Notes under the pieces: generated by a model | What the model saw: the letters and a program-made list of their open reading frames with translations, nothing else | Database searches by the model: none | Told to the model about the DNA's origin: nothing | Virus record (IMG/VR): IMGVR_UViG_3300043788_000060 | Span: 32,001 to 96,000 of that record | Length of the DNA stretch: 64,000 nt | DNA from: a virus | Reading direction: 5' to 3' (one strand) | Shown here: positions 360 to 63,518 of the stretch, piece after piece | Layout of the letters: each line of letters starts with the position of its first letter | Numbering within the stretch: position 1 is the first letter of the stretch | Translations under genes and position numbers: made by a program

Positions 360-435
360 GGTGGGATTGGCCGAGAGATTTAGGCGCGGGACTGTGACCC
401 CCGATACAGGAGTTTGATTCTCCTATCCTACCCCA
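360..435 (+). tRNA. tRNA-His(GUG)
   Basis: G-1:C73, acceptor GTGGGAT/ATCCTAC, loop CTGTGAC, encoded CCA. Confidence 0.9.
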
Positions 436-520
436 AGGTGCCAGAAAATTCCGGCTCGAATCCGGACCAACGGGTGCAAACGTTGAGTCGTCTAACGGGA
501 GGACATCTGGCTGTATTTTT

Positions 521-592
521 GGGCCGGGCTCCGAAGAGCAGATTTTCCTTGCAAGAAAGTCGCGGTGGGTTTAACTCCCACACGGTCCACCA
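521..592 (+). tRNA. tRNA-Ala(UGC)
   Basis: Loop CTTGCAA, G3:U70 alanine identity pair, 3' ACCA; D-arm is degenerate. Confidence 0.8.
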
Positions 593-646
593 ATGTATGA
601 ATGGGACCAACCGCTGCCGAGGCAAGTTGCCCATTCGCCCGTTTTA

Positions 647-722
647 GCCAACTGAGCAAGAGTGGTCTTTGCACCGGCTTGAAGCACCGAGGAGAGGCGT
701 TCGATTCGCCTAGTTGGCACCA
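647..722 (+). tRNA. tRNA-Phe(GAA)
   Basis: Acceptor GCCAACT/AGTTGGC, loop TTGAAGC, T-loop TTCGATT, 3' ACCA; weak anticodon stem. Confidence 0.8.
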
Positions 723-728
723 TAAAGT

Positions 729-800
729 TTTGCCTTGGTGTAATAGTGAGCACGAAGCCCCATAGGGGTTTATGATCCGGCTAAAATCCGGGAGGCAAAA
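729..800 (+). tRNA. tRNA-like cloverleaf, nominal anticodon AUA, no CCA (pseudo-tRNA?)
   Basis: TTTGCCT/AGGCAAA, D stem GTGT/GCAC, AAGCC-CCATAGG-GGTTT, TCCGG-CTAAAAT-CCGGG. Confidence 0.45.
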
Positions 801-808
801 AGTTTTAT

Positions 809-879
809 CAGTGACTGGGGTAGTGGTCGCCTCCGAGCCTCGGATGCTCGTGGAGAAAGTTCGATTCTTTCGTCGCTGA
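809..879 (+). tRNA. tRNA-Pro(CGG)
   Basis: Acceptor CAGTGAC/GTCGCTG, CGAGC-CTCGGAT-GCTCG, T-loop TTCGATT; CCA not encoded. Confidence 0.85.
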
Positions 880-967
880 CGGGGTGTAAAACCGTAAATA
901 GAAGCGGTCCTGCTTTGGAAGCAGGAGATTAAGATCACTGGACGTGCAAGTCGTCTCACCCCGACCA
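880..967 (+). tRNA. tRNA-Pro(UGG) with enlarged variable region
   Basis: CGGGGTG/CACCCCG, CCTGC-TTTGGAA-GCAGG, 3' ACCA. Confidence 0.85.
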
Positions 968-972
968 GTTAT

Positions 973-1047
973 GCCCGGTTCGTTCAACGTATAGGACCCA
1001 AGATTGCGAATCTTGAGACAGAAGTTAGACTCTTCTATCGGGCACCA
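973..1047 (+). tRNA. tRNA-Arg(GCG)
   Basis: GCCCGGT/ATCGGGC, CAAGA-TTGCGAA-TCTTG, 3' ACCA. Confidence 0.85.
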
Positions 1048-1052
1048 TTTAC

Positions 1053-1129
1053 GGCTCTATCGGCAACTGGAAAGTCGATCTCGCTTCGAACGAGAAACAG
1101 TGTAGGTTCGAGTCCTACTAGGGCTACCA
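1053..1129 (+). tRNA. tRNA-Arg(UCG)
   Basis: GGCTCTA/TAGGGCT, loop CTTCGAA, T-loop TTCGAGT, 3' ACCA. Confidence 0.85.
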
Positions 1130-1130
1130 C

Positions 1131-1204
1131 GCGAGTTTAATTTAGTGCCAGAATGTCGATCTCCAAAATCGAACGCAGGGGTTGAATTCCTCTAACTCGC
1201 GCCA
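1131..1204 (+). tRNA. tRNA-Trp(CCA)
   Basis: GCGAGTT/AACTCGC, TCGAT-CTCCAAA-ATCGA, 3' GCCA. Confidence 0.88.
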
Positions 1205-1209
1205 TTTTC

Positions 1210-1285
1210 GCCAACGAGGACGAAGCGGATAGTCGCCGCCCTCATAAAGCGGTTGTAGCTGATTCGAGTTCAGCCGTTGGCACCA
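1210..1285 (+). tRNA. tRNA-Met or Ile2 (CAU)
   Basis: GCCAACG/CGTTGGC, loop CTCATAA, 3' ACCA. Confidence 0.85.
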
Positions 1286-1430
1286 AGTTCAAAGAACAGG
1301 GGCAGAAATGTCAACTGTTCCTAGGCGGATAGAGCGCCCGGTCTAATAGCTGGCACATGGCGAGAGGAAGGAACAGGGTACCTTACGTCGTGCCGCCCTA
1401 TCCGTGACCCATTAGTCCGAATAATGGACT

Positions 1431-1525
1431 GCCGGAATTCTCAGGCGAGACGCTGGGTTTTATAAGCCCGGTTGTTGTCGGTCGATAGCCGATGCGCGAG
1501 AGATCGTCCCTCTCTTCCGGCCCCA
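1431..1525 (+). tRNA. tRNA with UAU anticodon (Ile) and long variable arm
   Basis: GCCGGAA/TTCCGGC, TGGGT-TTTATAA-GCCCG, variable hairpin GTCGGTCGATAGCCGAT, 3' CCCA. Confidence 0.7.
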
Positions 1526-1526
1526 C

Positions 1527-1601
1527 GGGTTGCAAGCTTTGATGGCGAAGCATCCGGCTCTTACCCGGAAGAACAGATTTCGATTATCTGGCAACCCACC
1601 A
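1527..1601 (+). tRNA. tRNA-Lys(CUU)
   Basis: GGGTTGC/GCAACCC, TCCGG-CTCTTAC-CCGGA, 3' ACCA. Confidence 0.9.
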
Positions 1602-1619
1602 ATTAAAAGTCAACACTGT

Positions 1620-1694
1620 GGGCCTCAAGCTTTAATGGTGAAGCAGTTGGCTTTTAACCTCCAGAACGGGGATCGTTACCCCGGGGGCCCACCA
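1620..1694 (+). tRNA. tRNA-Lys(UUU)
   Basis: GGGCCTC/GGGGCCC, loop CTTTTAA, 3' ACCA; mismatched anticodon stem. Confidence 0.82.
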
Positions 1695-1701
1695 AGTTTA
1701 T

Positions 1702-1779
1702 GCGCCAGTGGCTCGAAATGAACTAGGCCCCGAGCTTCTACCTCGGAGTATGCAGGTTTGAATCCTGTCTGGCGTTCCA
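1702..1779 (+). tRNA. tRNA-Arg(UCU)
   Basis: GCGCCAG/CTGGCGT, CCGAG-CTTCTAC-CTCGG, 3' TCCA. Confidence 0.85.
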
Positions 1780-1997
1780 TTTTGCGCAGGACCTCATCGT
1801 TGGCCCAGCAGAGATTTTGATATCCACGGGGTCTCACAGAAAGTAACCTGCGCAAATTTTTTCGAGGAGTTCAGATGAAAGTTGAATTCGCTTTTATGAA
1901 ACCTTGGTCCGGGATTTGGGTCGGGTTTCTCTGGGACGAACAAGTTAACGGATTATATATTAGTTTGTTACCTCCGTTTGTCATCAAGTTTCTATTT

Positions 1998-2073
1998 GGT
2001 CCCGTAGCTCAAGAGAACAGAGCGGTAGTTTCCTAAACTTCAGACCCGAGTTTAAGTCTCGGCGGGACCCCCA
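1998..2073 (+). tRNA. tRNA-Arg(CCU)
   Basis: GGTCCCG/CGGGACC, D stem GCTC/GAGC, loop TTCCTAA, 3' CCCA. Confidence 0.85.
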
Positions 2074-2163
2074 AGTTTGTGTGGTTAGCGAGGGAAGGGC
2101 AAGCTCCACCTCCCAAAGCGTTTGATGAGCAAAGGTAACAACAAACATCCACACAAAGTTTTT

Positions 2164-2238
2164 GCAGACGTAGTGAAACGGACATAATAAAACCCTCCGA
2201 AGGTTTAGTTGGCAGTTCGAATCTGCCCGTCTGCACCA
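2164..2238 (+). tRNA. tRNA-Arg(CCG)
   Basis: GCAGACG/CGTCTGC, AAACC-CTCCGAA-GGTTT, T-loop TTCGAAT, 3' ACCA. Confidence 0.88.
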
Positions 2239-2395
2239 TGTTTGTAACAGCAGCGAGAAATCGCAGGTAGGAACGCCCTTTCTGAGCGGTCAGCCGTCGT
2301 CCCGAGGCTTCCCATAATGGACCGGTGGGACATCACACAGATGTTAAACGCCCGCTATAATTTCGGGGCACTCAGAATCTGTTACAATTCGTTTT

Positions 2396-2473
2396 GCCGG
2401 GTTAACTCAGTCTGCTCAGAGTGCCTCTCTTACAAAGAGGAAGCCGAAGGTTGGAATCCTTCACCCGGTACCA
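2396..2473 (+). tRNA. tRNA-Val(UAC)
   Basis: GCCGGGT/ACCCGGT, CCTCT-CTTACAA-AGAGG, 3' ACCA. Confidence 0.88.
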
Positions 2474-2478
2474 TATTT

Positions 2479-2556
2479 CCCAGAGTAGCTCAAGTGGCTC
2501 AGAGCACTCGACCGATAATCGAGAGGTTGGGGATTCGATTACCCCCTCTGGGACCA
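2479..2556 (+). tRNA. tRNA-Ile(GAU), atypical C33
   Basis: CCCAGAG/CTCTGGG, CTCGA-CCGATAA-TCGAG, 3' ACCA. Confidence 0.85.
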
Positions 2557-2668
2557 TACAATTTATTTGCAGAATACTTGTGTATTGGCTTTCTGATGTC
2601 AAGAGCCGAATACGACAGCACATGGCAGTGCATAATAAATCGTCCTGCAAATGAGACATCAAATTTTC

Positions 2669-2746
2669 GCGGCCATAGCCAAGTCTGCTAAGGCAATAGT
2701 CTTCCAAACTATCATCACGCGGGTTGGAATCCCGCTGGCCGCTCCA
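2669..2746 (+). tRNA. tRNA-Gly(UCC)
   Basis: GCGGCCA/TGGCCGC, ATAGT-CTTCCAA-ACTAT, 3' TCCA. Confidence 0.9.
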
Positions 2747-4815: not shown

Positions 4816-5076
4816 ATGTCTATTGGAAATGTCATCGTGGATCATTGGGGAGCAATTGCTGGAACGGGCGGCGGGTTTCTTGCCTTCAACGCGGCAGTAG
4901 CCGCCCTTCCGCCTAAAGACACCAAGATATCTTCTTTCAAACAATTCCTTGCGGTGTCTTACGGATTTGTCTACGATTTTCTGCATAACTTCGCGTCGTT
5001 CCGGAGTGGTGGTTCTTCCAACCCTTCGACCCTTCAAAACCCTACCCAGCCGGTATCCCCGGCCACGACCAAATAA
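4816..5076 (+). CDS. small membrane protein (holin-like)
   Basis: Two hydrophobic segments in 86 aa. Confidence 0.5.
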   Translation: MSIGNVIVDHWGAIAGTGGGFLAFNAAVAALPPKDTKISSFKQFLAVSYGFVYDFLHNFASFRSGGSSNPSTLQNPTQPVSPATTK

Positions 5077-5090
5077 CCAAGGAGATTCAA

Positions 5091-5522
5091 ATGGCAACAA
5101 CTTTCAAATCATTTCTTAGCGCAGTCGGCCACGACTTCGTGACTGCTCTAAACTGGATTGGCAGCACCAAGGGGCAAGCAGCTATCGCGGGTACAGAAAC
5201 TATTGTCAACTCGGTAGTGACTGCCATTAACCCAGCAGCCGGTCTGGCGTTGGACGGCGTGGAGGCTCTTGTTAATGCTGGCCTAAAGCAAGTCGTTGCA
5301 ATCGAAGCATCCGCCGCCGCGTTGAATGTACAGAGCGGAACAGGCGCTCAGAAGCTGGCCGCTGTGGTAGCTGCTTTGACACCGCAGGCTCAGGCTTTGC
5401 TGGTGAGTGTTGGAGTTTCTGCTCCGACAGCAGCAGAAGTTCAGACTCTGGCAAGCAATATTGCTAACGGTCTCGTGGCCATCCTCAATGCAATTCCGGC
5501 TTCTGCAACCGCAACAGCGTAA
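5091..5522 (+). CDS. Ala-rich hypothetical protein
   Basis: 143-aa ORF, AGGAG SD. Confidence 0.7.
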   Translation: MATTFKSFLSAVGHDFVTALNWIGSTKGQAAIAGTETIVNSVVTAINPAAGLALDGVEALVNAGLKQVVAIEASAAALNVQSGTGAQKLAAVVAALTPQAQALLVSVGVSAPTAAEVQTLASNIANGLVAILNAIPASATATA

Positions 5523-11855: not shown

Positions 11856-11914
11856 CCGTCCGAATAATGGACCAACAACTTCCCGTAAGTGAGGATTTCA
11901 CTTAGGAGTTCAGA

Positions 11915-13017: not shown

Positions 13018-13239
13018 ATGAAAGCACCATTAGCATATCTTGGACATTGGAGAGACAAAGAAGTATCTCGTTTAACCCTTTTGGCCCAGAAAACCGAGAA
13101 TGGCTATGAGTTCGAATATCATATCGCAGAAGACCTCGGAACAGCCTCTGGCAACCACGAAGTTGCTTCCTTTTTCGGATCAATAGTTCCTGCTATCGAG
13201 AAAGAATTTTCAAAACAATTTAGTAAACCGTCCGAATAA
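13018..13239 (+). CDS. hypothetical protein
   Basis: AAGGA SD; its stop lies within a copy of the 15-bp motif. Confidence 0.55.
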   Translation: MKAPLAYLGHWRDKEVSRLTLLAQKTENGYEFEYHIAEDLGTASGNHEVASFFGSIVPAIEKEFSKQFSKPSE

Positions 13240-13287
13240 TGGACAAACCACACCCCGTGATAGAGGATTTCTATCGAGGAGCAAGTA

Positions 13288-14436
13288 ATGGCAAAACCTG
13301 TAATCGATCCGTGGCTTCTAAACGCCGACGGAACCCCAGACCCCTTTTCACAAGCCGTAGACTACGGCATGACCGCGAAAGACGAAGTCGATCCGGACCT
13401 ACAACCTATTGAACCGCACGGCGGGCTCGATCCACAGATCATCGCCAACCAGCCACCAGCCCCGAGCGAAGAAACACCAGTAGAAACACCGCCCGCTCCC
13501 GTCGTTGAACCGGAGCCAGAAGGTCCCGAAGTTTTCGAACTGCCGAACGGCGGCACGGTAACCCGCACCAAGGAAAAAGGACAATGGAAGGCCGTCCTCG
13601 ACCCGGGCACCGGAGCAAACCCCGAAGTATTCTGGGGCAAGAACAAGGATGAGCTTTTGGTAAGCGTACTCACGGGGAAGCTAGAGGCTACCAAAAAGAT
13701 TAGGGAGTTGAACAAAAAGGTAAAGCTGACCGCTCCCGCTGCTCCGAGACAAGTTCAACAGCCGCCCCAACCGTCTGTCCGCGATCTTACCGCCGACGAA
13801 TCATTTGAGATCAAGGCCCTCTGGGACTCAAACCCCGCCGCCGCCCTCGATCTTCTTGTCAAAAAGCGGACAAACCTCACTCTTGAAGACTTGGTGGCAA
13901 AAGCCAATAGGGGCGACCAAGCCAACATCAGTCTGGAAACCGAGGCAATTACTCGGGAATTCATCGAAAAGAATCCAGACTACTACACTGACCCAAGGAA
14001 CGCCGATGCGTTTCTCAAATGGTTGGCAAAATTCAAACTCGGCAAGAACGTCACGGAAACCAACTCGGGAGAAATACTTACCGAACTTTGGACATCCGGT
14101 AACTTCACTGTCGAAAATCTTGAGGAAGCGTTCCAAGACCTGACCGACGATGGATTATTGGTCAAGCCACGTCTTCCCAAAACACCTCCGCCGGTAGAGG
14201 TTCTACCAGAACCGGTACCTGCGCCAGCGCCCCCGAACACACGGATTGTGAAGACGGAGACGCGCCCGCGAGCGGCACTAGGAATCAGGAACAGCGATGT
14301 ATCAGCTACACCGCCTCCTCAAACTCCGACTGCGCCCACAGACGAGGACCTAGAGAATCTTCCTGACGAACAGATCAGCGCATTGCTGAGAGGCGTTCGC
14401 AAGATGAAAGCTCAACAGGCCCGGCGCTCTAACTAA
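13288..14436 (+). CDS. capsid scaffolding protein (putative)
   Basis: Acidic/Pro-rich protein directly upstream of the major capsid gene; GAGGAG SD. Confidence 0.72.
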   Translation: MAKPVIDPWLLNADGTPDPFSQAVDYGMTAKDEVDPDLQPIEPHGGLDPQIIANQPPAPSEETPVETPPAPVVEPEPEGPEVFELPNGGTVTRTKEKGQWKAVLDPGTGANPEVFWGKNKDELLVSVLTGKLEATKKIRELNKKVKLTAPAAPRQVQQPPQPSVRDLTADESFEIKALWDSNPAAALDLLVKKRTNLTLEDLVAKANRGDQANISLETEAITREFIEKNPDYYTDPRNADAFLKWLAKFKLGKNVTETNSGEILTELWTSGNFTVENLEEAFQDLTDDGLLVKPRLPKTPPPVEVLPEPVPAPAPPNTRIVKTETRPRAALGIRNSDVSATPPPQTPTAPTDEDLENLPDEQISALLRGVRKMKAQQARRSN

Positions 14437-14452
14437 ACAACAAGGAGTAACC

Positions 14453-16933
14453 ATGAGTTACTCTCCTACAAGTATCGTCACGAGCGGGGCGCTTCCGAAC
14501 TTAGTCGCAATTCACTATGAGCGCGAAGCTGTTCCCAACCTCAAGGCGCAAACTCCTTTCCTTTCCATGACCAAGCAGCGTCCGCTGCCGTTGCGGCAAG
14601 GTAACCAGATTCAGTTCTACACCTACGCGATCTTGGCTGCAAACCTGAACCAAGCCGCTGAGGGAACCGTGAATAAACCTGCGGTTCTAAAATTCGCCCA
14701 AATCCGTCAATACCTGTTTGCAGAAGCCGCCTAGTGTGGTATAATGTGAATAGACAAGACGGAGGAAAATTCTTGCGAAGCGACATCCATCCCAAGCGTT
14801 GGGCTTTCATAGCCGGTCTAATTGACGGTGATGGAAGTTTCAGTATCCGATATGACAAAGAGTCCGGATATCAATTAACTGTTAACATATATTCGACATC
14901 GAGAAATCTGATGAACTGGTTGGTCAAGCTGATTGGTGGCCAGTATCGAAAGATGCCTACGAAGGGCAATCGTAAACAGCGGTATGCTTGGTATTCAGGG
15001 AATTCAGAAATTCCCACCAATGTTGCTCCGTATCTCATTCTCAAGAAAAGTCAGGCAGAGTCTTCCGTTCTATTCTTTAATCTTGGCTCAGAGAGAAATC
15101 CTCAAGCTAGAGAAGAATTGATGAGAGACATTCAAAATGCTAATGACTTTTATGTACCAGCCAATAAAAAAGATGTACAGGATAGTCGAAAAAATCCGAT
15201 AGAACCCACCAAACTGGATTGGGCCTATCTCTCCGGATTGTTTGATGCTGAGGGGTCTTTCGGCCTCCAAAGGCGCAGCAAAAAGGGCAACGGTTCCTAT
15301 ACATCTTACGCACGAATTTCAAACACAGATAATCGGGTATTCTTGTGGATCGCGCCCCGCTTCGGCGGTCGGTTTTCGGTTACTACCAAGGAACACGATA
15401 AAGATGAAGGCGCATGGACGTTGTCCGGCTCCATCGGTTTAGAAGGAAGAAAAGATCGAGAGAACAAACTCTTGGCTTTGGTTCCTTATCTGGTTGCTAA
15501 GAAAGAACGTGCGGTGCTCTTTATGGAGTGGATTAGAAATAACCACCTATTGACCAAAGAGCAAAAATTGGATTATTTTCTGAGAATGAAGGCGTTGAAC
15601 AAACGCGGAATCTCTCTAGAGACTAATACGGCGAACTGTCCAGAAAATGGACAGATGATAGAGTCCGATCCTGATAGCGATATCAGGTGCGACCCAGCAG
15701 TGATGTTGGAGTCCTAAAACACAAATAAGGAAGCCCGATCTCCGAATCGAGCACCAAGATCGTTGCTACCATCGGGCAGTATGCCGATTTTATCAACAGT
15801 TCTGACTTGGCTCTCGACGTAGCAATCGACGATCCGGGTTTGCTCCAGAATCTGGCAAACGAACTCAACTACCGGCTTGCTCTTACCCTCAACTCTCTTG
15901 TCCAGATCACAGCGGACTCGGCAGTTGCGGTGGACTCGCTGGTCAACACACAACTGGCCAACGGCTCGTATCTGACGGCGAACAACCTTCGTTCGGCAGT
16001 TCAGTCGCTGGTATCGGTCAACGCACGGCCTCTCGTAAATAACTCCTACGGTGGAATCATTCACCCGAACGTGGTACGAGACATCCTCAACGACACGTCT
16101 TTCAATGGTCTAACCGACATTGTAAAGCGCGATCCTGAGATGGCGAAGATGCTGTACGAACTCCCGAAGAATGATGATGTTATCAAGTTCGCCGGGGTCA
16201 CGTTCAAGCAAACAAGCACTGCGCCGACGGTGACCATCAGTTCGAACACGTATTACAACACTTACATCTTCGGGGACGACGCGATTTTCAGCGTCTTCTT
16301 GGGCAAGAATCCCGAGGATGGATCGAAGAACTATTTGCAAAAAGTAGCTTGAGCGGGCAACTGCTCTCGAACAGACCGTAAATTCGGTGGAACCCTCACA
16401 GAGGCAATACCGAGCCAAGTCGCGAAAGCGGAAGGTGTAGAGACTAGAGACGGTCCTCCCTATGGGATGATAGTATAGTCCGGACTGCACAGCGATGTGC
16501 AGAGGCAAACAGAAATGATTTGCCCGTCCGAATAATGGACAGTAACAAAACGAAACTCTTCATCCAGAGTGCGCCTGAGCAGGGAAGTGTAAGTGATCCA
16601 GCACGTCAACTTTAGGCGTCACTAAGGCGAAATCCTTAGAAGAAAATTCTATCTAATTGACTTGGAAGCTGAGAAGCCAACAAGGCGGAACCCAGAAATC
16701 GGGACCGTGAGAGACTAAACGATAGAACACCCTTTGGGGTGATGCGATAGTCCGGCCTCATACGAAATGAAGTATGAGAGGTGTGCAGAAATGACGCACC
16801 CCGTCCATTTTAGACGAGTAACATTCCGCAAATTGGAGGCTGGGTTTCTTACAATGTACGGTACACAAACACTTTGCGTCCGGGCAGCACAATGACGCTA
16901 AGACGTTTGCAATCAGAGACATCCAGTTCATAG
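14453..16933 (+). CDS. major capsid protein, N4-gp56 family, 4 exons: 14453-14670, 15728 or 15731-16334, 16553-16606, 16829-16933 (326-327 aa)
   Basis: Spliced product reads ...PLRQGNQIQF...EGTV(G)SP...ATIGQYADF...GIIHP...SKNY|KLFIQ...SDPAR|QIGGWVSY...SSS*, matching the N4-gp56-type motifs EG-x-QYG, IHP and DP..Q..GW. Confidence 0.88.
14717..14746 (+). promoter_or_regulatory. sigma70-type extended -10 promoter inside intron 1
   Basis: TTTGCA-17-TATAAT with TGTGG extension, upstream of the LAGLIDADG ORF. Confidence 0.7.
14773..15717 (+). CDS. double-motif LAGLIDADG homing endonuclease (intron encoded)
   Basis: FIAGLIDGDGSF and YLSGLFDAEGSF; GGAGG SD at 14761 before TTG. Confidence 0.93.
   Translation: MRSDIHPKRWAFIAGLIDGDGSFSIRYDKESGYQLTVNIYSTSRNLMNWLVKLIGGQYRKMPTKGNRKQRYAWYSGNSEIPTNVAPYLILKKSQAESSVLFFNLGSERNPQAREELMRDIQNANDFYVPANKKDVQDSRKNPIEPTKLDWAYLSGLFDAEGSFGLQRRSKKGNGSYTSYARISNTDNRVFLWIAPRFGGRFSVTTKEHDKDEGAWTLSGSIGLEGRKDRENKLLALVPYLVAKKERAVLFMEWIRNNHLLTKEQKLDYFLRMKALNKRGISLETNTANCPENGQMIESDPDSDIRCDPAVMLES
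16335..16552 (+). mobile_element. group I intron 2 of the capsid gene (ORF-less, 218 nt)
   Basis: 5' exon ends CTAT pairing with GTAG; core AATTCGGTGGAA..GCAATACCGAGCC, GAGACTA/ATAGTCC; terminal G16552 restores the frame. Confidence 0.9.
16607..16828 (+). mobile_element. group I intron 3 of the capsid gene (ORF-less, 222 nt)
   Basis: P1 ACGT/GCGT, P3 TTCTATC/GATAGAA, GAGACTA/ATAGTCC; terminal G16828 restores the frame. Confidence 0.9.
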
Positions 16934-16962: not shown

Positions 16963-16994
16963 TTTACACAAAGCCATTAAACTGTGGTATAATG
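16963..16994 (+). promoter_or_regulatory. extended -10 promoter for the GIY-YIG gene
   Basis: TTTACA...TGTGGTATAATG. Confidence 0.7.
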
Positions 16995-17073: not shown

Positions 17074-17853
17074 ATGTATTACATCTATTTGGTAACGAAT
17101 AAAGTCAACGGAAAGATTTATGTTGGTCAGACTGGGTTGACCATAGAGGAACGTTTTAAAAGTCACATCTGGTCTCGGAACAAGGACGATCATTTTCATG
17201 CGGCAATCCGAAAGTATGGAGAAGACGCTTTCGTCATCCAAGAGTTGGGCAAGTTCGAATCTCTCGAAGAAGCCAACAACGCAGAATCTTTGTGGATAAT
17301 CTCCCTTCGATCCTACGACAGCAAAATTGGCTACAACACGAAATTTGGTGGCGAAAACGGAGGAGCCCCCACCGAAGAAACAAGAATCAAAATCGGATTA
17401 GCAAGCAGCCAAAGAGTTCATGCTGCTGAGACTCGGGAAAAGATGCGAAATTCTCATCTCAAACGCCAAGGAAAAACTACTTCCCACGAGGGAGTGGGGG
17501 TTTTTAAAGGACGTTTTCGGGCGAGAATCAAGATTCACGGAAAAGAAATTTCTTTGGGACAACACGATACCATTGAAGAGGCGGTTGAGTTTCGAAAAAA
17601 GAGTTTAGAACGGCTGAGCCAAATCGGACTAGAAGCTTTCACGGGAGAACTAGAAATCTTCCGTAAAGAAGTAAACAAGAAAAGAATCGCAAACCGGCCT
17701 CACAGAGGACCTTTATCTGACGAAGAAAAGGAACAGATTAGTATTCGCACCAAGAAACGATGGGCGAAGAACTTTAATTGGATGGACGCTCAATTCGTTT
17801 CTCCCTTTGTAACGGACGCCCAAACCCAGCAGAACGATCAGGTTGCATCATGA
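17074..17853 (+). CDS. free-standing GIY-YIG homing endonuclease with NUMOD3 and AP2-like domains
   Basis: YIYLVTN..GKIYVGQT..R, GYN; HAAETREKMRNSH; GVGVFKGRFRARIKIHGKEISLG..TIEEA. Confidence 0.9.
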   Translation: MYYIYLVTNKVNGKIYVGQTGLTIEERFKSHIWSRNKDDHFHAAIRKYGEDAFVIQELGKFESLEEANNAESLWIISLRSYDSKIGYNTKFGGENGGAPTEETRIKIGLASSQRVHAAETREKMRNSHLKRQGKTTSHEGVGVFKGRFRARIKIHGKEISLGQHDTIEEAVEFRKKSLERLSQIGLEAFTGELEIFRKEVNKKRIANRPHRGPLSDEEKEQISIRTKKRWAKNFNWMDAQFVSPFVTDAQTQQNDQVAS

Positions 17854-20196: not shown

Positions 20197-20210
20197 AGTG
20201 TGGTATAATG
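20182..20210 (+). promoter_or_regulatory. sigma70-type promoter upstream of the large ncRNA
   Basis: TTGCAA-16-TATAAT with TGTGG extension. Confidence 0.72.
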
Positions 20211-21005: not shown

Positions 21006-21038
21006 ATTTCGTCCAGATAATGGACTAGGGAGAAAACG

Positions 21039-40351: not shown

Positions 40352-41443
40352 ATGCCTGTATTACCCGGGAACCAAGCTAATTCGCCGACAGTTCAGCAGA
40401 TAGCTCAACAACTAAAAGCGGACCCCTCTTTCTATAACATATTAGGAGGGGCTGCTGGTTGGGCTACCGAACCAATCCTGACTATCGCCAACGAAGTTCT
40501 GTCGCGAATTCTCGCCGAGAACATGCCTTGGATTTGGAATCGGGCAATCGTTCCTCCGTTCTTAACTGTCAGCCTTCAGCAGGATTATTGCACTCAGCTT
40601 ACGGATATTGGGTGGTTGGAAGATGGCTGGCGTATAGACATCAACAACTCGACATCGAATAACAACGGGGCCCCGAAACCTATCTTTAGCCTCGAAACGG
40701 TCAGGTACACCCCGCAGGCGTCCGCCCAATCCGTACCATTCAACATTAGCTTCGTCCCTAACTCACAGGCGTTTCTAGGATCGTGGCAGGCTAATACTGC
40801 TTATGGTTGTGGGTATGGAGTTCCTATGACTCCTCGAACCCCCATCCAGCAGTTCATGGATGTAAATGGCAACATCCTATACATCGACTCGACCCAACTA
40901 GGATTGACCATTTCTTCTCCGGGGTACACTGGAACTACCATCCTTCCCCCCGGAACAGTGTTTCCTTACGGCACATCTGGGGCTACTCAACCCGCCGCTC
41001 CTCCTAACGCTACTCCCGGAACTTTAGTTCAGGATGGTTCGGTCATTTGGGCAGTCGCTGATCCAAATGGTTATGCGATACGGCTATTTCCTCTTCCGGC
41101 GTTGAACGGTCTCTGTTGGTGGATCGTAACTCAGTATCAGGTAGCTCCCCCGGTTATCGCAAGATTGCAAGATTCGATTGCTCCTATTCCTAACTACATG
41201 GCGTACCTCTTCCGTCAAGGGTGCCGGGCGATGCTCTATCAGTTTCAAGGAAACCAGCAAGGTACTCAAATGTATCAGGAGTGGGAAGAGCAACTTTTTA
41301 AGGCTTTGAGAGCGGGGGACCGCCAGCAATCAGACGAGCGTCTATACCCTGATCATTCAATTATGGGAAGCTACAACCCGTGGATGGACCCTGCTGGCAT
41401 TGGCGCAGCTTGGCCTTATGGCCCCGGCCCGTATGCCTATTGA
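40352..41443 (+). CDS. head-tail adaptor-like protein 2
   Basis: PWIWNR, IRLFPLP and APIPNY motifs; paralog of 27121..27837 with a W-repeat insert. Confidence 0.7.
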   Translation: MPVLPGNQANSPTVQQIAQQLKADPSFYNILGGAAGWATEPILTIANEVLSRILAENMPWIWNRAIVPPFLTVSLQQDYCTQLTDIGWLEDGWRIDINNSTSNNNGAPKPIFSLETVRYTPQASAQSVPFNISFVPNSQAFLGSWQANTAYGCGYGVPMTPRTPIQQFMDVNGNILYIDSTQLGLTISSPGYTGTTILPPGTVFPYGTSGATQPAAPPNATPGTLVQDGSVIWAVADPNGYAIRLFPLPALNGLCWWIVTQYQVAPPVIARLQDSIAPIPNYMAYLFRQGCRAMLYQFQGNQQGTQMYQEWEEQLFKALRAGDRQQSDERLYPDHSIMGSYNPWMDPAGIGAAWPYGPGPYAY

Positions 41444-42165
41444 TATTGGTCTGTGATTGATGGTCTCATTTTGATTCCGGCCTTTTTGAGCCTGTGCCGC
41501 ACCCCAGCTTCCGTTAAAGGAAATAGTTTGGAAATTTGTGGGCAACTTTTTCCTTCCAAATAAAGCTTAATCAGGTCTTCCGTTTTTACTTCTTGGTTGA
41601 AGGAAGTACTCTTATCTCCAGAAAATCTTTCCCTAAGTTTCTGTCGAGTTTCTTCGGATAAAGAAGGACGATTCTTTTGGGCTTCCCCGATCTTTTTCCT
41701 TGTTATTTCTGATACGGGCGGTCGAGGATTGATGAGCAAAGATTTTTTAATGGCTTCGCTCATCTTCTTTCGAGATTCTAAGCTGTGTTTGAATCCTTTT
41801 GGAAGACCGCCGCTTTCCCTCACTTCTTCCGATGGTTTTCCATTAGCTCCCCCTCTTTTTAGGTTATAACCTTTGGATTTATTCATCGAATCATAAGCCG
41901 CTATGTAGAGGTCTTCCATCAAGTCTAATTCCTCTTTTGATTGGCAAGAACAAAGAAGTTCGATTTTGAATGATTCTTTTCCATACCGACGAATTGCCCG
42001 GAAAAGAGGCGTATCCTGCCCCTTGTATTTTCCCGACAGATATGCCACGGCGTGGGATACGTGATTGCGAAACCGCAGTTTTAGGGACGACACTGTCTGG
42101 CCAACATAAATCTTTTTGTTGACTAAGCATGTAATCAAGTAAATTCTACCGTAAACCAAAATCAT
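41437..42165 (-). CDS. free-standing GIY-YIG homing endonuclease with NUMOD3 repeats and terminal HTH
   Basis: GRIYLITC..KIYVGQT..RF..H, GYNL, HSLESRKKMSEA repeats. Confidence 0.9.
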   Translation of the reverse strand: MILVYGRIYLITCLVNKKIYVGQTVSSLKLRFRNHVSHAVAYLSGKYKGQDTPLFRAIRRYGKESFKIELLCSCQSKEELDLMEDLYIAAYDSMNKSKGYNLKRGGANGKPSEEVRESGGLPKGFKHSLESRKKMSEAIKKSLLINPRPPVSEITRKKIGEAQKNRPSLSEETRQKLRERFSGDKSTSFNQEVKTEDLIKLYLEGKSCPQISKLFPLTEAGVRHRLKKAGIKMRPSITDQYQ

Positions 42166-42171
42166 AGTTTT

Positions 42172-42199
42172 ATTATACCACACTTCCCCAGTTTGTCAA
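42172..42199 (-). promoter_or_regulatory. consensus sigma70 promoter for the GIY-YIG gene
   Basis: TTGACA-16-TATAAT with TGTGG extension on the minus strand. Confidence 0.85.
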
Positions 42200-63017: not shown

Positions 63018-63518
63018 TTACACCTCAAACTTTTGACGCAATTTCATTATACCACACTTTTGTCTCCAGCGCACAGCATCAACCGAAATTCCTAATTTTT
63101 CTGCGGTTTTTGCTTGGGTGAGACCTTCGATGAATAAGCTCCGGATCACGGATTGTTCCTCCCCGGGCAACGAATCGATAGCCTGATATAATTCCGATTC
63201 CGAAACTTCGCCTTCGATTTCTGCTGCGATTCTTTCTAGATGCCGGGCCATCGACGGATCATCTGCTGACACCAGTTTGGGGGGTTTGCTGTACCCTGTC
63301 CACGGTCTCAGAATATTTCGAACCTGCTTTTGACAAATCTCCAGTGCTATGTCTTCGTGGTCGGGCCCAGTAAGTTTGTCCTGATTCTCAAGTAACGCCA
63401 CATAACAATCTTGAGTCAGGTCTTCTTTCTGAGTTTTGTTGAGCCTGATTTTGCCCAGCCCTATTCTCGATGTGAGAGCGATTTTGATTACCGGTGCGTA
63501 TTGAGTAACGTCTGCCAT
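63018..63518 (-). CDS. sigma70-family (ECF-like) sigma factor
   Basis: Region 2-like EDLTQDCYVALL; region 4 AIDSLPGEEQSVI..EGLTQAKTAEKLGIS. Confidence 0.8.
   Translation of the reverse strand: MADVTQYAPVIKIALTSRIGLGKIRLNKTQKEDLTQDCYVALLENQDKLTGPDHEDIALEICQKQVRNILRPWTGYSKPPKLVSADDPSMARHLERIAAEIEGEVSESELYQAIDSLPGEEQSVIRSLFIEGLTQAKTAEKLGISVDAVRWRQKCGIMKLRQKFEV

Follow-up and report, generated by a model that had tools for sequence, protein, structure and literature searches.

Three predicted group I introns split the capsid gene of a soil phage

The sequence studied here comprises bases 32001-96000 of the 110,256-nucleotide (nt) IMG/VR virus record IMGVR_UViG_3300043788_000060, which is rated complete, and this stretch of 64,000 nt is called the window. 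The record is a soil phage with a 110-kb genome, and in the window the reading frame of its capsid gene runs from an ATG at 14453 to a TAG at 16931-16933 and is interrupted three times. We propose, with high confidence, that this is a single capsid gene split by three group I introns and spliced to a product of 327 amino acids (aa). In the proposed model, the gene would be transcribed as a single ~2.5 kb pre-mRNA from which three group I ribozymes would excise themselves by two transesterifications each, with each guide pairing with the end of the upstream exon and a U.G at the cleavage site, and what remains would be 981 nt of coding sequence, for an HK97-type capsid protein of 327 aa. The proposal draws on the anatomy of the sequence, on collinearity with homologs, on covariation, and on the presence or absence of the introns in relatives, all of which were observed directly.

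Four exons were delimited, all on the + strand. Exon 1 (14453-14670, 218 nt) encodes codons 1-72 plus the GU of Val73, has the 3' end ...GGAACCGU, and is collinear with homologs. Exon 2 (15728-16334, 607 nt, or 604 nt if it starts at 15731) reads (V)GSPISESS...GSKNY. Exon 3 (16553-16606) is a 54-nt micro-exon encoding KLFIQSAPEQGSVSDPAR, which corresponds to homolog residues 276-293 with 17 of 18 residues identical. Exon 4 (16829-16933, 102 nt plus TAG) encodes QIGGWVSYNV...SETSSS, and all 34 residues are identical to those of P0004, an uninterrupted metagenomic homolog of 327 aa. When the exons are joined, they give 984 nt and 327 aa with one stop codon, which is terminal, and the joined protein aligns with P0004 over its whole length without a gap (299 of 327 residues identical). 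P0004 sets the junctions at ...AAEGTV/GSPIS..., ...GSKNY/KLFIQ..., and ...SDPAR/QIGGW.... The head protein of the Tunturiibacter phage Tunturi_3 (343 aa) is also uninterrupted, and three of its segments match collinearly (residues 1-72 with 14453-14671, 73-277 with 15729-16304, and 311-343 with 16832-16930). Among 5.8 billion proteins searched, 258 were relatives; many of these are uninterrupted, with 326-330 aa and 70-88% identity, while many others are short, with ends reading into insert sequence. An earlier note on this DNA had described four exons, one of 54 nt, that rejoin into a protein of 326-327 aa, and had called for an alignment with intron-less homologs. The alignment is collinear, the junctions are fixed by the uninterrupted 326-330-aa homologs, and the joined protein has 327 aa with an acceptor at A15727 and 326 aa with one at G15730. 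The fragmentation by open reading frame (ORF) callers that it had foreseen is seen in the database proteins of relatives, which end in intron read-through (for example, ...KNYLQKVA).

Two matches identify the product as a capsid protein: exon 2 matches the major head protein of PHROG 1357 (E 3e-9), and identity to the annotated Tunturi_3 head protein is 40%. The N4-gp56 type first assigned to it holds as a distant likeness and no further: against TIGR04387 (N4-gp56 family), the full-length homolog scored 39.9 bits and exon 2 alone 27 bits, below the NCBIfam cut-off of 60, and by these scores its kinship to N4 gp56 is remote. No capsid domain was found in a Pfam search of the exons, no match was found in a PDB sequence search with the homolog, and no second capsid gene was found in the 110-kb genome. 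A scaffold-like ORF (13288-14436) lies upstream of the capsid gene, and the ATG has an AAGGAG ribosome-binding site ahead of it. Among isolates, Tunturi_3 is the closest, one homolog is located in a Candidatus Sulfotelmatobacter metagenome-assembled genome, and the phage group probably infects Acidobacteriota.

The three inserts have the anatomy of group I introns. As the earlier note had reported, a U.G P1 splice site and a P7 of GAGACUA with (U/G)AGUCC are present in all three. The U.G wobbles at the 5' splice sites are U14670.G14681, U16334.G16344, and U16606.G16616, and P1 comprises 8 base pairs (bp) in intron 1, 6 bp in intron 2, and 5 bp in intron 3. GAGACUA is paired with (G/U)AGUCC at 15619-15625/15660-15666, 16440-16446/16476-16481, and 16711-16717/16748-16753. 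To place these features in a wider family, we used an IMG/VR scan that gave 80 related loci (numbered with the prefix L), for which spliced alignments to P0004 were made and flanks of up to 4 kb were included. The P3-P9 core with its P3/P7 pseudoknot is kept in the related copies, with 96-97% of cells paired compared to 30-41% with the partners slid. For the intron 2 family, 23 distinct copies were aligned and 44 of 57 pairs showed compensatory changes, with 97.2% of cells paired, the P7 pseudoknot included, compared to 35-41% when slid. The intron 3 family (14 copies) showed compensatory changes in 28 of 44 pairs and an invariant P1 U.G (14/14), and the 3' domain of the intron 1 family (18 copies) in 21 of 26 pairs, with 96.1% of cells paired. 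P7 itself covaries (C-G/G-C and U-A/C-G), and the G-binding pair within it is G-C in 23 of 23 copies of the intron 2 family (alignment columns 155/198) and in 18 of 18 copies of the intron 1 family (columns 28/74), including the copies that end in A. The guide varies with its target (CUAU/GUAG, CUGU/GCAG, GGUAU/GUACC, ACGU/GCGU, UCCU/GGGA, and ACAACGU/GCGUUGU). For 85 introns at ~20 or more sites, the mean contiguous P1 was 5.3 bp with the intron's own exon, compared to 3.07 ± 0.11 bp when exon ends were swapped between sites. The covariation in related copies supports helices P2-P9.2 and the P7 pseudoknot, and with them the claim that the capsid gene is interrupted by three group I introns. 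The Rfam model RF00028 matched intron 2 with 47.6 bits (E 3e-10), intron 1 with 20.8 bits (over 15511-15687), and intron 3 with 20.5 bits; no match was found outside the three inserts in the window or in the whole genome, and all three group I cores of the genome fall within the capsid gene. It is the comparative evidence, not Rfam alone, that settles the predicted group I identity of the inserts.

Several points weigh against this interpretation. The group I model search suggested in the earlier note succeeded in part, in that RF00028 matched all three inserts, but each score was under the gathering score of 50; the ORF within intron 1 and the compact peripheral regions lower the scores. P1 in introns 2 and 3 is short (4-6 bp). 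Intron 1 lacks a terminal G at the collinear junction while the G-C pair in P7 is unchanged, and therefore ligation at A15727 would be poor by standard chemistry. The link between intron 3 and a downstream GIY-YIG gene, described below, is a co-occurrence among related, non-independent contigs. Splicing itself is predicted from the DNA sequence. A scan of viral contigs for the spliced exon 1/exon 2 junction gave no match, and in metagenome contigs the same junction gave seven 29-nt matches, the length expected of intron-less alleles, and one unrelated chance match (L089). No intron-less locus is a spliced transcript, because none is >86% identical in nucleotides to an intron-bearing locus.

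Two other explanations would leave the inserts in the RNA. The first, which we consider very unlikely, is that the inserts are never removed, the phage being defective and its capsid gene a decayed pseudogene, or the contig being mis-assembled. A sequence found in a metagenome only, with sub-threshold Rfam scores and an odd 3' end of intron 1, would be compatible with this, but the exons are open and 91% identical to intact homologs, and they make up the sole capsid gene of a record rated complete. In addition, independent assemblies share these introns and their sites and show compensatory changes, and the endonuclease ORF in intron 1 is intact. The second, more improbable still, is that the inserts are handled at the level of protein or translation, as inteins, by ribosomal bypass, or with the capsid made from separate polypeptides. 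Stops are present in all three frames of every insert, no intein motifs were seen, and the inserts fold as group I cores; the length of intron 3 (222 nt) is a multiple of 3, and nothing specific speaks for such handling. The stops in the frame of the upstream exon are located 7-62 nt into each intron (at 14732, 16350, and 16613), and in-frame stops just inside introns have been read as an aid to intron folding through ribosome stalling (review, PMC3984707).

The 3' end of intron 1 is an odd part of the proposed splicing of the capsid gene. Intron 1 (14671-15727, + strand, 1057 nt, or 1060 nt if the acceptor is G15730) ends at the collinear junction with ...ACACAAAUA, the last base being A15727, and exon 2 then starts AGGAAGC. 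Homologs demand ...GU/N GGN... at this junction. By alignment to family members ending in ...AAAUG or ...CAGUG, a terminal A is seen in the window, L021, L027, and L082 and a terminal G in L017/L022, L023, L063, and, by read-through, the contig behind P0005, so that the terminal A is common to four diverged phages. All four A-type copies encode Gly after the junction, with differing third codon bases (A, C, C, U), and P10 (AGG with CCU at 14678-14680) directly adjoins P1, as expected for a junction at the A. Nothing points to a changed nucleotide specificity, since the A-type copies retain the same G-binding G-C pair. From these alignments, we infer that the 3' junction most likely lies between A15727 and A15728. 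With an acceptor after G15730 instead, there would still be three introns, and the mature protein would have 326 aa, read EGTV-SPIS, and lack Gly74. This alternative is less probable, yet it deserves serious consideration: a terminal G is nearly universal, the A-type copies have an unaltered G-C pair in P7, every copy retains the GG, and the frame is preserved when A-G-G is removed. On the other side, it would create a one-residue gap relative to P0004 at Gly74, a residue that none of >100 homologs lacks, and would reduce P10 to one base pair. It would also extend the tail after P9.1 by 3 nt relative to the other members of the family that were inspected and would let the neighboring G15729 compete, with the frame broken. 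A precedent for an intron without a terminal G exists, since a title cited in PMC3428280 reports a natural self-splicing intron of this kind for Coxiella. The predicted exon 1/exon 2 junction peptides are EGTVGSPISESSTK with the A15727 acceptor and EGTVSPISESSTK with the G15730 acceptor. A donor after CCU 14680 combined with an acceptor after G15737 (VNKP for VGSP) was rejected, as GSP is kept with synonymous changes and NKP is not conserved. A third type of intron tail, suggested by proteins starting MGSPIS..., was also rejected; gene callers that begin at the GTG of Val73 account for such proteins better, and no match to the tail pattern was obtained.

Intron 1 contains an endonuclease gene within its core. 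In P1 (GGAACCGU/GCGGUUCU), the final 8 nt of exon 1 (14663-14670) pair with GCGGUUCU at 14681-14688. P3 (14693-14698/15630-15635) spans ~930 nt and covaries in relatives (UUCGCC/GGCGAA, UCUACC/GGUAGA, and UUUGCC/GGCAAA), and P4 (14703-14708/14758-14763) is UCCGUC/GACGGA in the window and UCUGUC/GACAGA in L017. P6 (14769-14777/15604-15611) is AUUCUUGCG/CGCGGAAU, and P7 is accompanied by P8 (15636-15654), P9 (15670-15687), and P9.1 (15691-15713). The LAGLIDADG homing endonuclease ORF (14773-15717, + strand, 314 aa) has a TTG start and a GGAGG Shine-Dalgarno sequence at 14761-14765, and it runs across P6', P7, P3', P8, P9, and P9.1 to its stop at 15717; it sits in the P6 loop, because P6 includes the TTG start. 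It matches PF00961 (LAGLIDADG_1) with 47 bits (cut-off 23.1) and PF14528 with 38.6 bits, and it carries two LAGLIDADG motifs, LIDGDGSF and LFDAEGSF. The gene is intact in 6 of 6 copies of the intron at site 218, with 66-83% identity in six relatives, and a contig scan found no further site-218 copies beyond these six contigs. Intron 1 thus has the features of a mobile intron, in which the endonuclease would serve homing.

The 3' strand of P4 overlaps the GGAGG ribosome-binding site, and P6 covers the TTG start at 14773, so in the full-length capsid pre-mRNA the ribosome-binding site and start would be buried in P4 and P6. An extended -10-like site, TGTGGTATAAT (14735-14745, + strand), lies between the two P4 strands upstream of the ORF and is kept in 5 of 6 copies of the site-218 intron; L023 has TGTGATATAAT. 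The LAGLIDADG gene is probably expressed from this promoter-like site of its own in the P5 region. Transcripts starting at TGTGGTATAAT would not contain the 5' strand of P4, and therefore the ribosome-binding site would be freed. In the td intron of phage T4, the I-TevI endonuclease gene has its own promoter, and its ribosome-binding site is hidden by RNA structure. The regulation predicted for intron 1 resembles this arrangement, although the endonuclease here is LAGLIDADG and not GIY-YIG. As a separate observation, the exact extended -10-like 12-mer TGTGGTATAATG is found at 14735-14746, 16983-16994, and 20199-20210 (+ strand), with further sites at 63045-63056 and 42171-42182 (- strand). It precedes the LAGLIDADG ORF, the GIY-YIG gene at 17074, a minus-strand 133-aa ORF, and the stretch after 20199, in which no + strand ORF of 80 aa or more is present.

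Intron 2 (16335-16552, + strand, 218 nt) and intron 3 (16607-16828, + strand, 222 nt) have no ORF and end in G16552 and G16828, respectively, and each combines an RF00028 match with covariation. The helices of intron 2, in addition to P7, are P1 (16331-16336/16342-16347), P2 (16351-16366), P3 (16374-16379/16450-16455), P9 (16485-16502), P9.1 (16504-16524), and P9.2 (16526-16540). Those of intron 3 are P1 (16603-16607/16615-16619), P2 (16622-16639), and P9 (16756-16781). An alternative P1 of intron 3 (AGUGAU/GUCACU, with the junction 16597/16817) broke collinearity, and the junction 16606/16829 was adopted instead. Skipping of the micro-exon (16553-16606) would give a 309-aa capsid variant and would stay in frame, because 54 is a multiple of 3. 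The two introns have different guides (GUAG and GCGU), and therefore skipping should be disfavored. In the 23S rRNA of Coxiella burnetii, studied by Raghavan et al. in 2007, two group I introns reportedly surround a 34-nt micro-exon that can be skipped. As in the window, a micro-exon lies between introns of which one lacks a terminal G, but the host gene is a bacterial rRNA gene and not a phage protein gene. According to PMC10136302, orf142 of Staphylococcus phage Twort is similar to the window in having three group I introns and a micro-exon between two of them (23 nt, compared to 54 nt here). Splicing and exon skipping were shown experimentally for Twort (Landthaler and Shub 1999, summarized in PMC10136302), whereas splicing in the window is predicted from sequence; the same text describes the Twort micro-exon as flanked by related introns, whereas introns 2 and 3 of the window are from different families with different guides.

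A 15-nt hairpin motif, GTCC(G/A)(G/A)ATAATGGAC, occurs at 31 sites in the window with up to 3 mismatches, compared to 1.5 expected (for example, at 11858-11872, 13230-13244, 15638-15652, 16526-16540, and 21011-21025). P8 of intron 1 and P9.2 of intron 2 are each made by a copy of it, and in other phages the intron families keep the same hairpin in these helices. The motif is mostly on the + strand through ~25 kb and of mixed orientation beyond, and two copies lie ~43 nt upstream of start codons. The hairpin may act as a promoter, or as an RNA element to which a phage protein binds.

A free-standing GIY-YIG homing endonuclease gene (17074-17853, + strand; Pfam GIY-YIG, 41 bits, above the cut-off) begins 141 nt past the capsid stop codon, with TGTGGTATAATG ahead of it at 16983-16994. 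Copies that are 66-90% identical are found in the same place (<~160 nt past the capsid stop) in L026, L039, and L081, all of which have the site-879 intron, so that gene and intron occur together in 4 of 4 assessable loci, these being the related contigs referred to above. Among the ~35-40 intron-less loci, a GIY-YIG gene is found at that place only in L075, and L051 has one ~1.4 kb downstream. More distant GIY-YIG genes follow capsid genes with other 3'-proximal introns. Intron 3 at least is probably mobilized by the neighboring downstream GIY-YIG endonuclease, and collaborative homing fits the pattern, as a correlation only (PMC3984707, PMC6083498). A free-standing endonuclease gene beside an ORF-less intron, as for intron 3, is also found with the psbA intron and F-CphI of cyanophage S-PM2 (PMC3984707, PMC6083498).

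Among the 80 related loci, ~35-40 have an uninterrupted capsid gene, and the others carry inserts at ~20 or more distinct positions. In nearly all of them, the last exon base is U and the last insert base is G. The inserts of the window are not due to chance, since each has homologous copies at the same or other capsid-gene sites in other contigs. L004-L007, in which exon 2 is 97-98% identical in aa to that of the window, have different intron sets (site 915 only, site 825 only, or a mini-insert plus site 905). Close relatives thus differ in their intron sets, and therefore intron gain and loss appear to be fast. Profile searches of L004-L083, which took in flanks of up to 4 kb, gave 0 to ~8 ribozyme cores per capsid gene (8 in L063) and none elsewhere in these stretches. 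The introns of these loci form three sequence families, each of which is found at several sites.

Mini-inserts of 46-59 nt were observed between Gly297 and Trp298 of the capsid genes of sister phages (L011:4897-4942, L045:4895-4940, L022:4894-4952, L005:3681-3732, L017 at ~4889-4936, and L063 at ~5318-5367). Their lengths are not multiples of 3, they contain stops, and every one ends in G. The exon sequence GGUGGU pairs with GCCUCCGA, the junction pair being U.G, and the adjoining GACCCA pairs with UGGGUC of the 3' exon (P10 of 5-6 bp); L017 has a compensatory change (GGUGGAU/GUCCACC). The mini-inserts are too small for a ribozyme core, and a full-size intron lies 16-39 nt downstream in 6 of 6 alleles. 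They may be core-less introns spliced by the neighboring ribozyme, and no precedent for core-less mini-introns was found in the literature searched. Combining these observations with those on intron 1, we put forward tentatively, as a proposal that could well fail, that intron 1 ligates after a terminal A with an ordinary G-C pair, a state kept in the most highly expressed gene of at least four diverged phages, and that the mini-inserts of the sister phages are non-autonomous group I introns needing a neighboring ribozyme.

The layout, which the earlier note had called unusual, is rare, but capsid-gene introns have been published before for LittleE and a crAss-like Zeta-group phage; introns in capsid genes are therefore already known, and here they are found in a different phage group. 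For the mycobacteriophage LittleE, the capsid intron was proven by reverse transcription PCR (RT-PCR), and Tuc2009 is cited there too (PMC3706429). As in the window, the LittleE intron is in a capsid gene, has a U before the 5' splice site and a LAGLIDADG-like ORF, and gives a spliced protein collinear with an intron-less relative; it ends in G, as do introns 2 and 3 of the window (PMC3706429). It differs in being a single intron with its ORF on the opposite strand and in that splicing was proven by RT-PCR and N-terminal sequencing (PMC3706429). In the crAss-like Zeta-group phage cMAG OLRF01000054, the capsid gene is in five fragments (Yutin et al. 2021, PMC7886860). Like the window, it is a metagenomic find with a split capsid gene and confused annotation, and 3 of 4 spacers have group I signatures (PMC7886860). 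That phage belongs to another phage order and has a gut Bacteroidetes host, in contrast to soil and probably Acidobacteriota here. The crAss-like introns were found via protein domains, and no intron with a terminal A and no 54-nt exon is described there (PMC7886860). Jug phages have a mean of 18.5 group I introns per genome (PMC12363816).

If the gene is spliced as proposed, capsid output would hang on three ribozyme reactions within one transcript. One of these may use a non-canonical 3' end, which would make the gene a natural test bed for group I efficiency under strong expression demand. Gene callers split the capsid gene, and therefore capsid-based classification and host-linking of an abundant soil phage group would miss or mis-size it. 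With 0 to ~8 introns per gene, ~twenty sites, and guides re-tuned for each site, the family is an unusually full record, within a single 1-kb gene, of how introns spread, decay, and partner with endonucleases.

Two further features of the window were noted. A second free-standing endonuclease gene (41437-42183, - strand, 248 aa), with a GIY-YIG-like N-terminus by eye, lies between two large structural-looking genes, and a copy of TGTGGTATAATG with one mismatch stands before it, the gene starting at 42183 (- strand). At least 12 tRNA genes are clustered at the left end of the window (361-2743, + strand).

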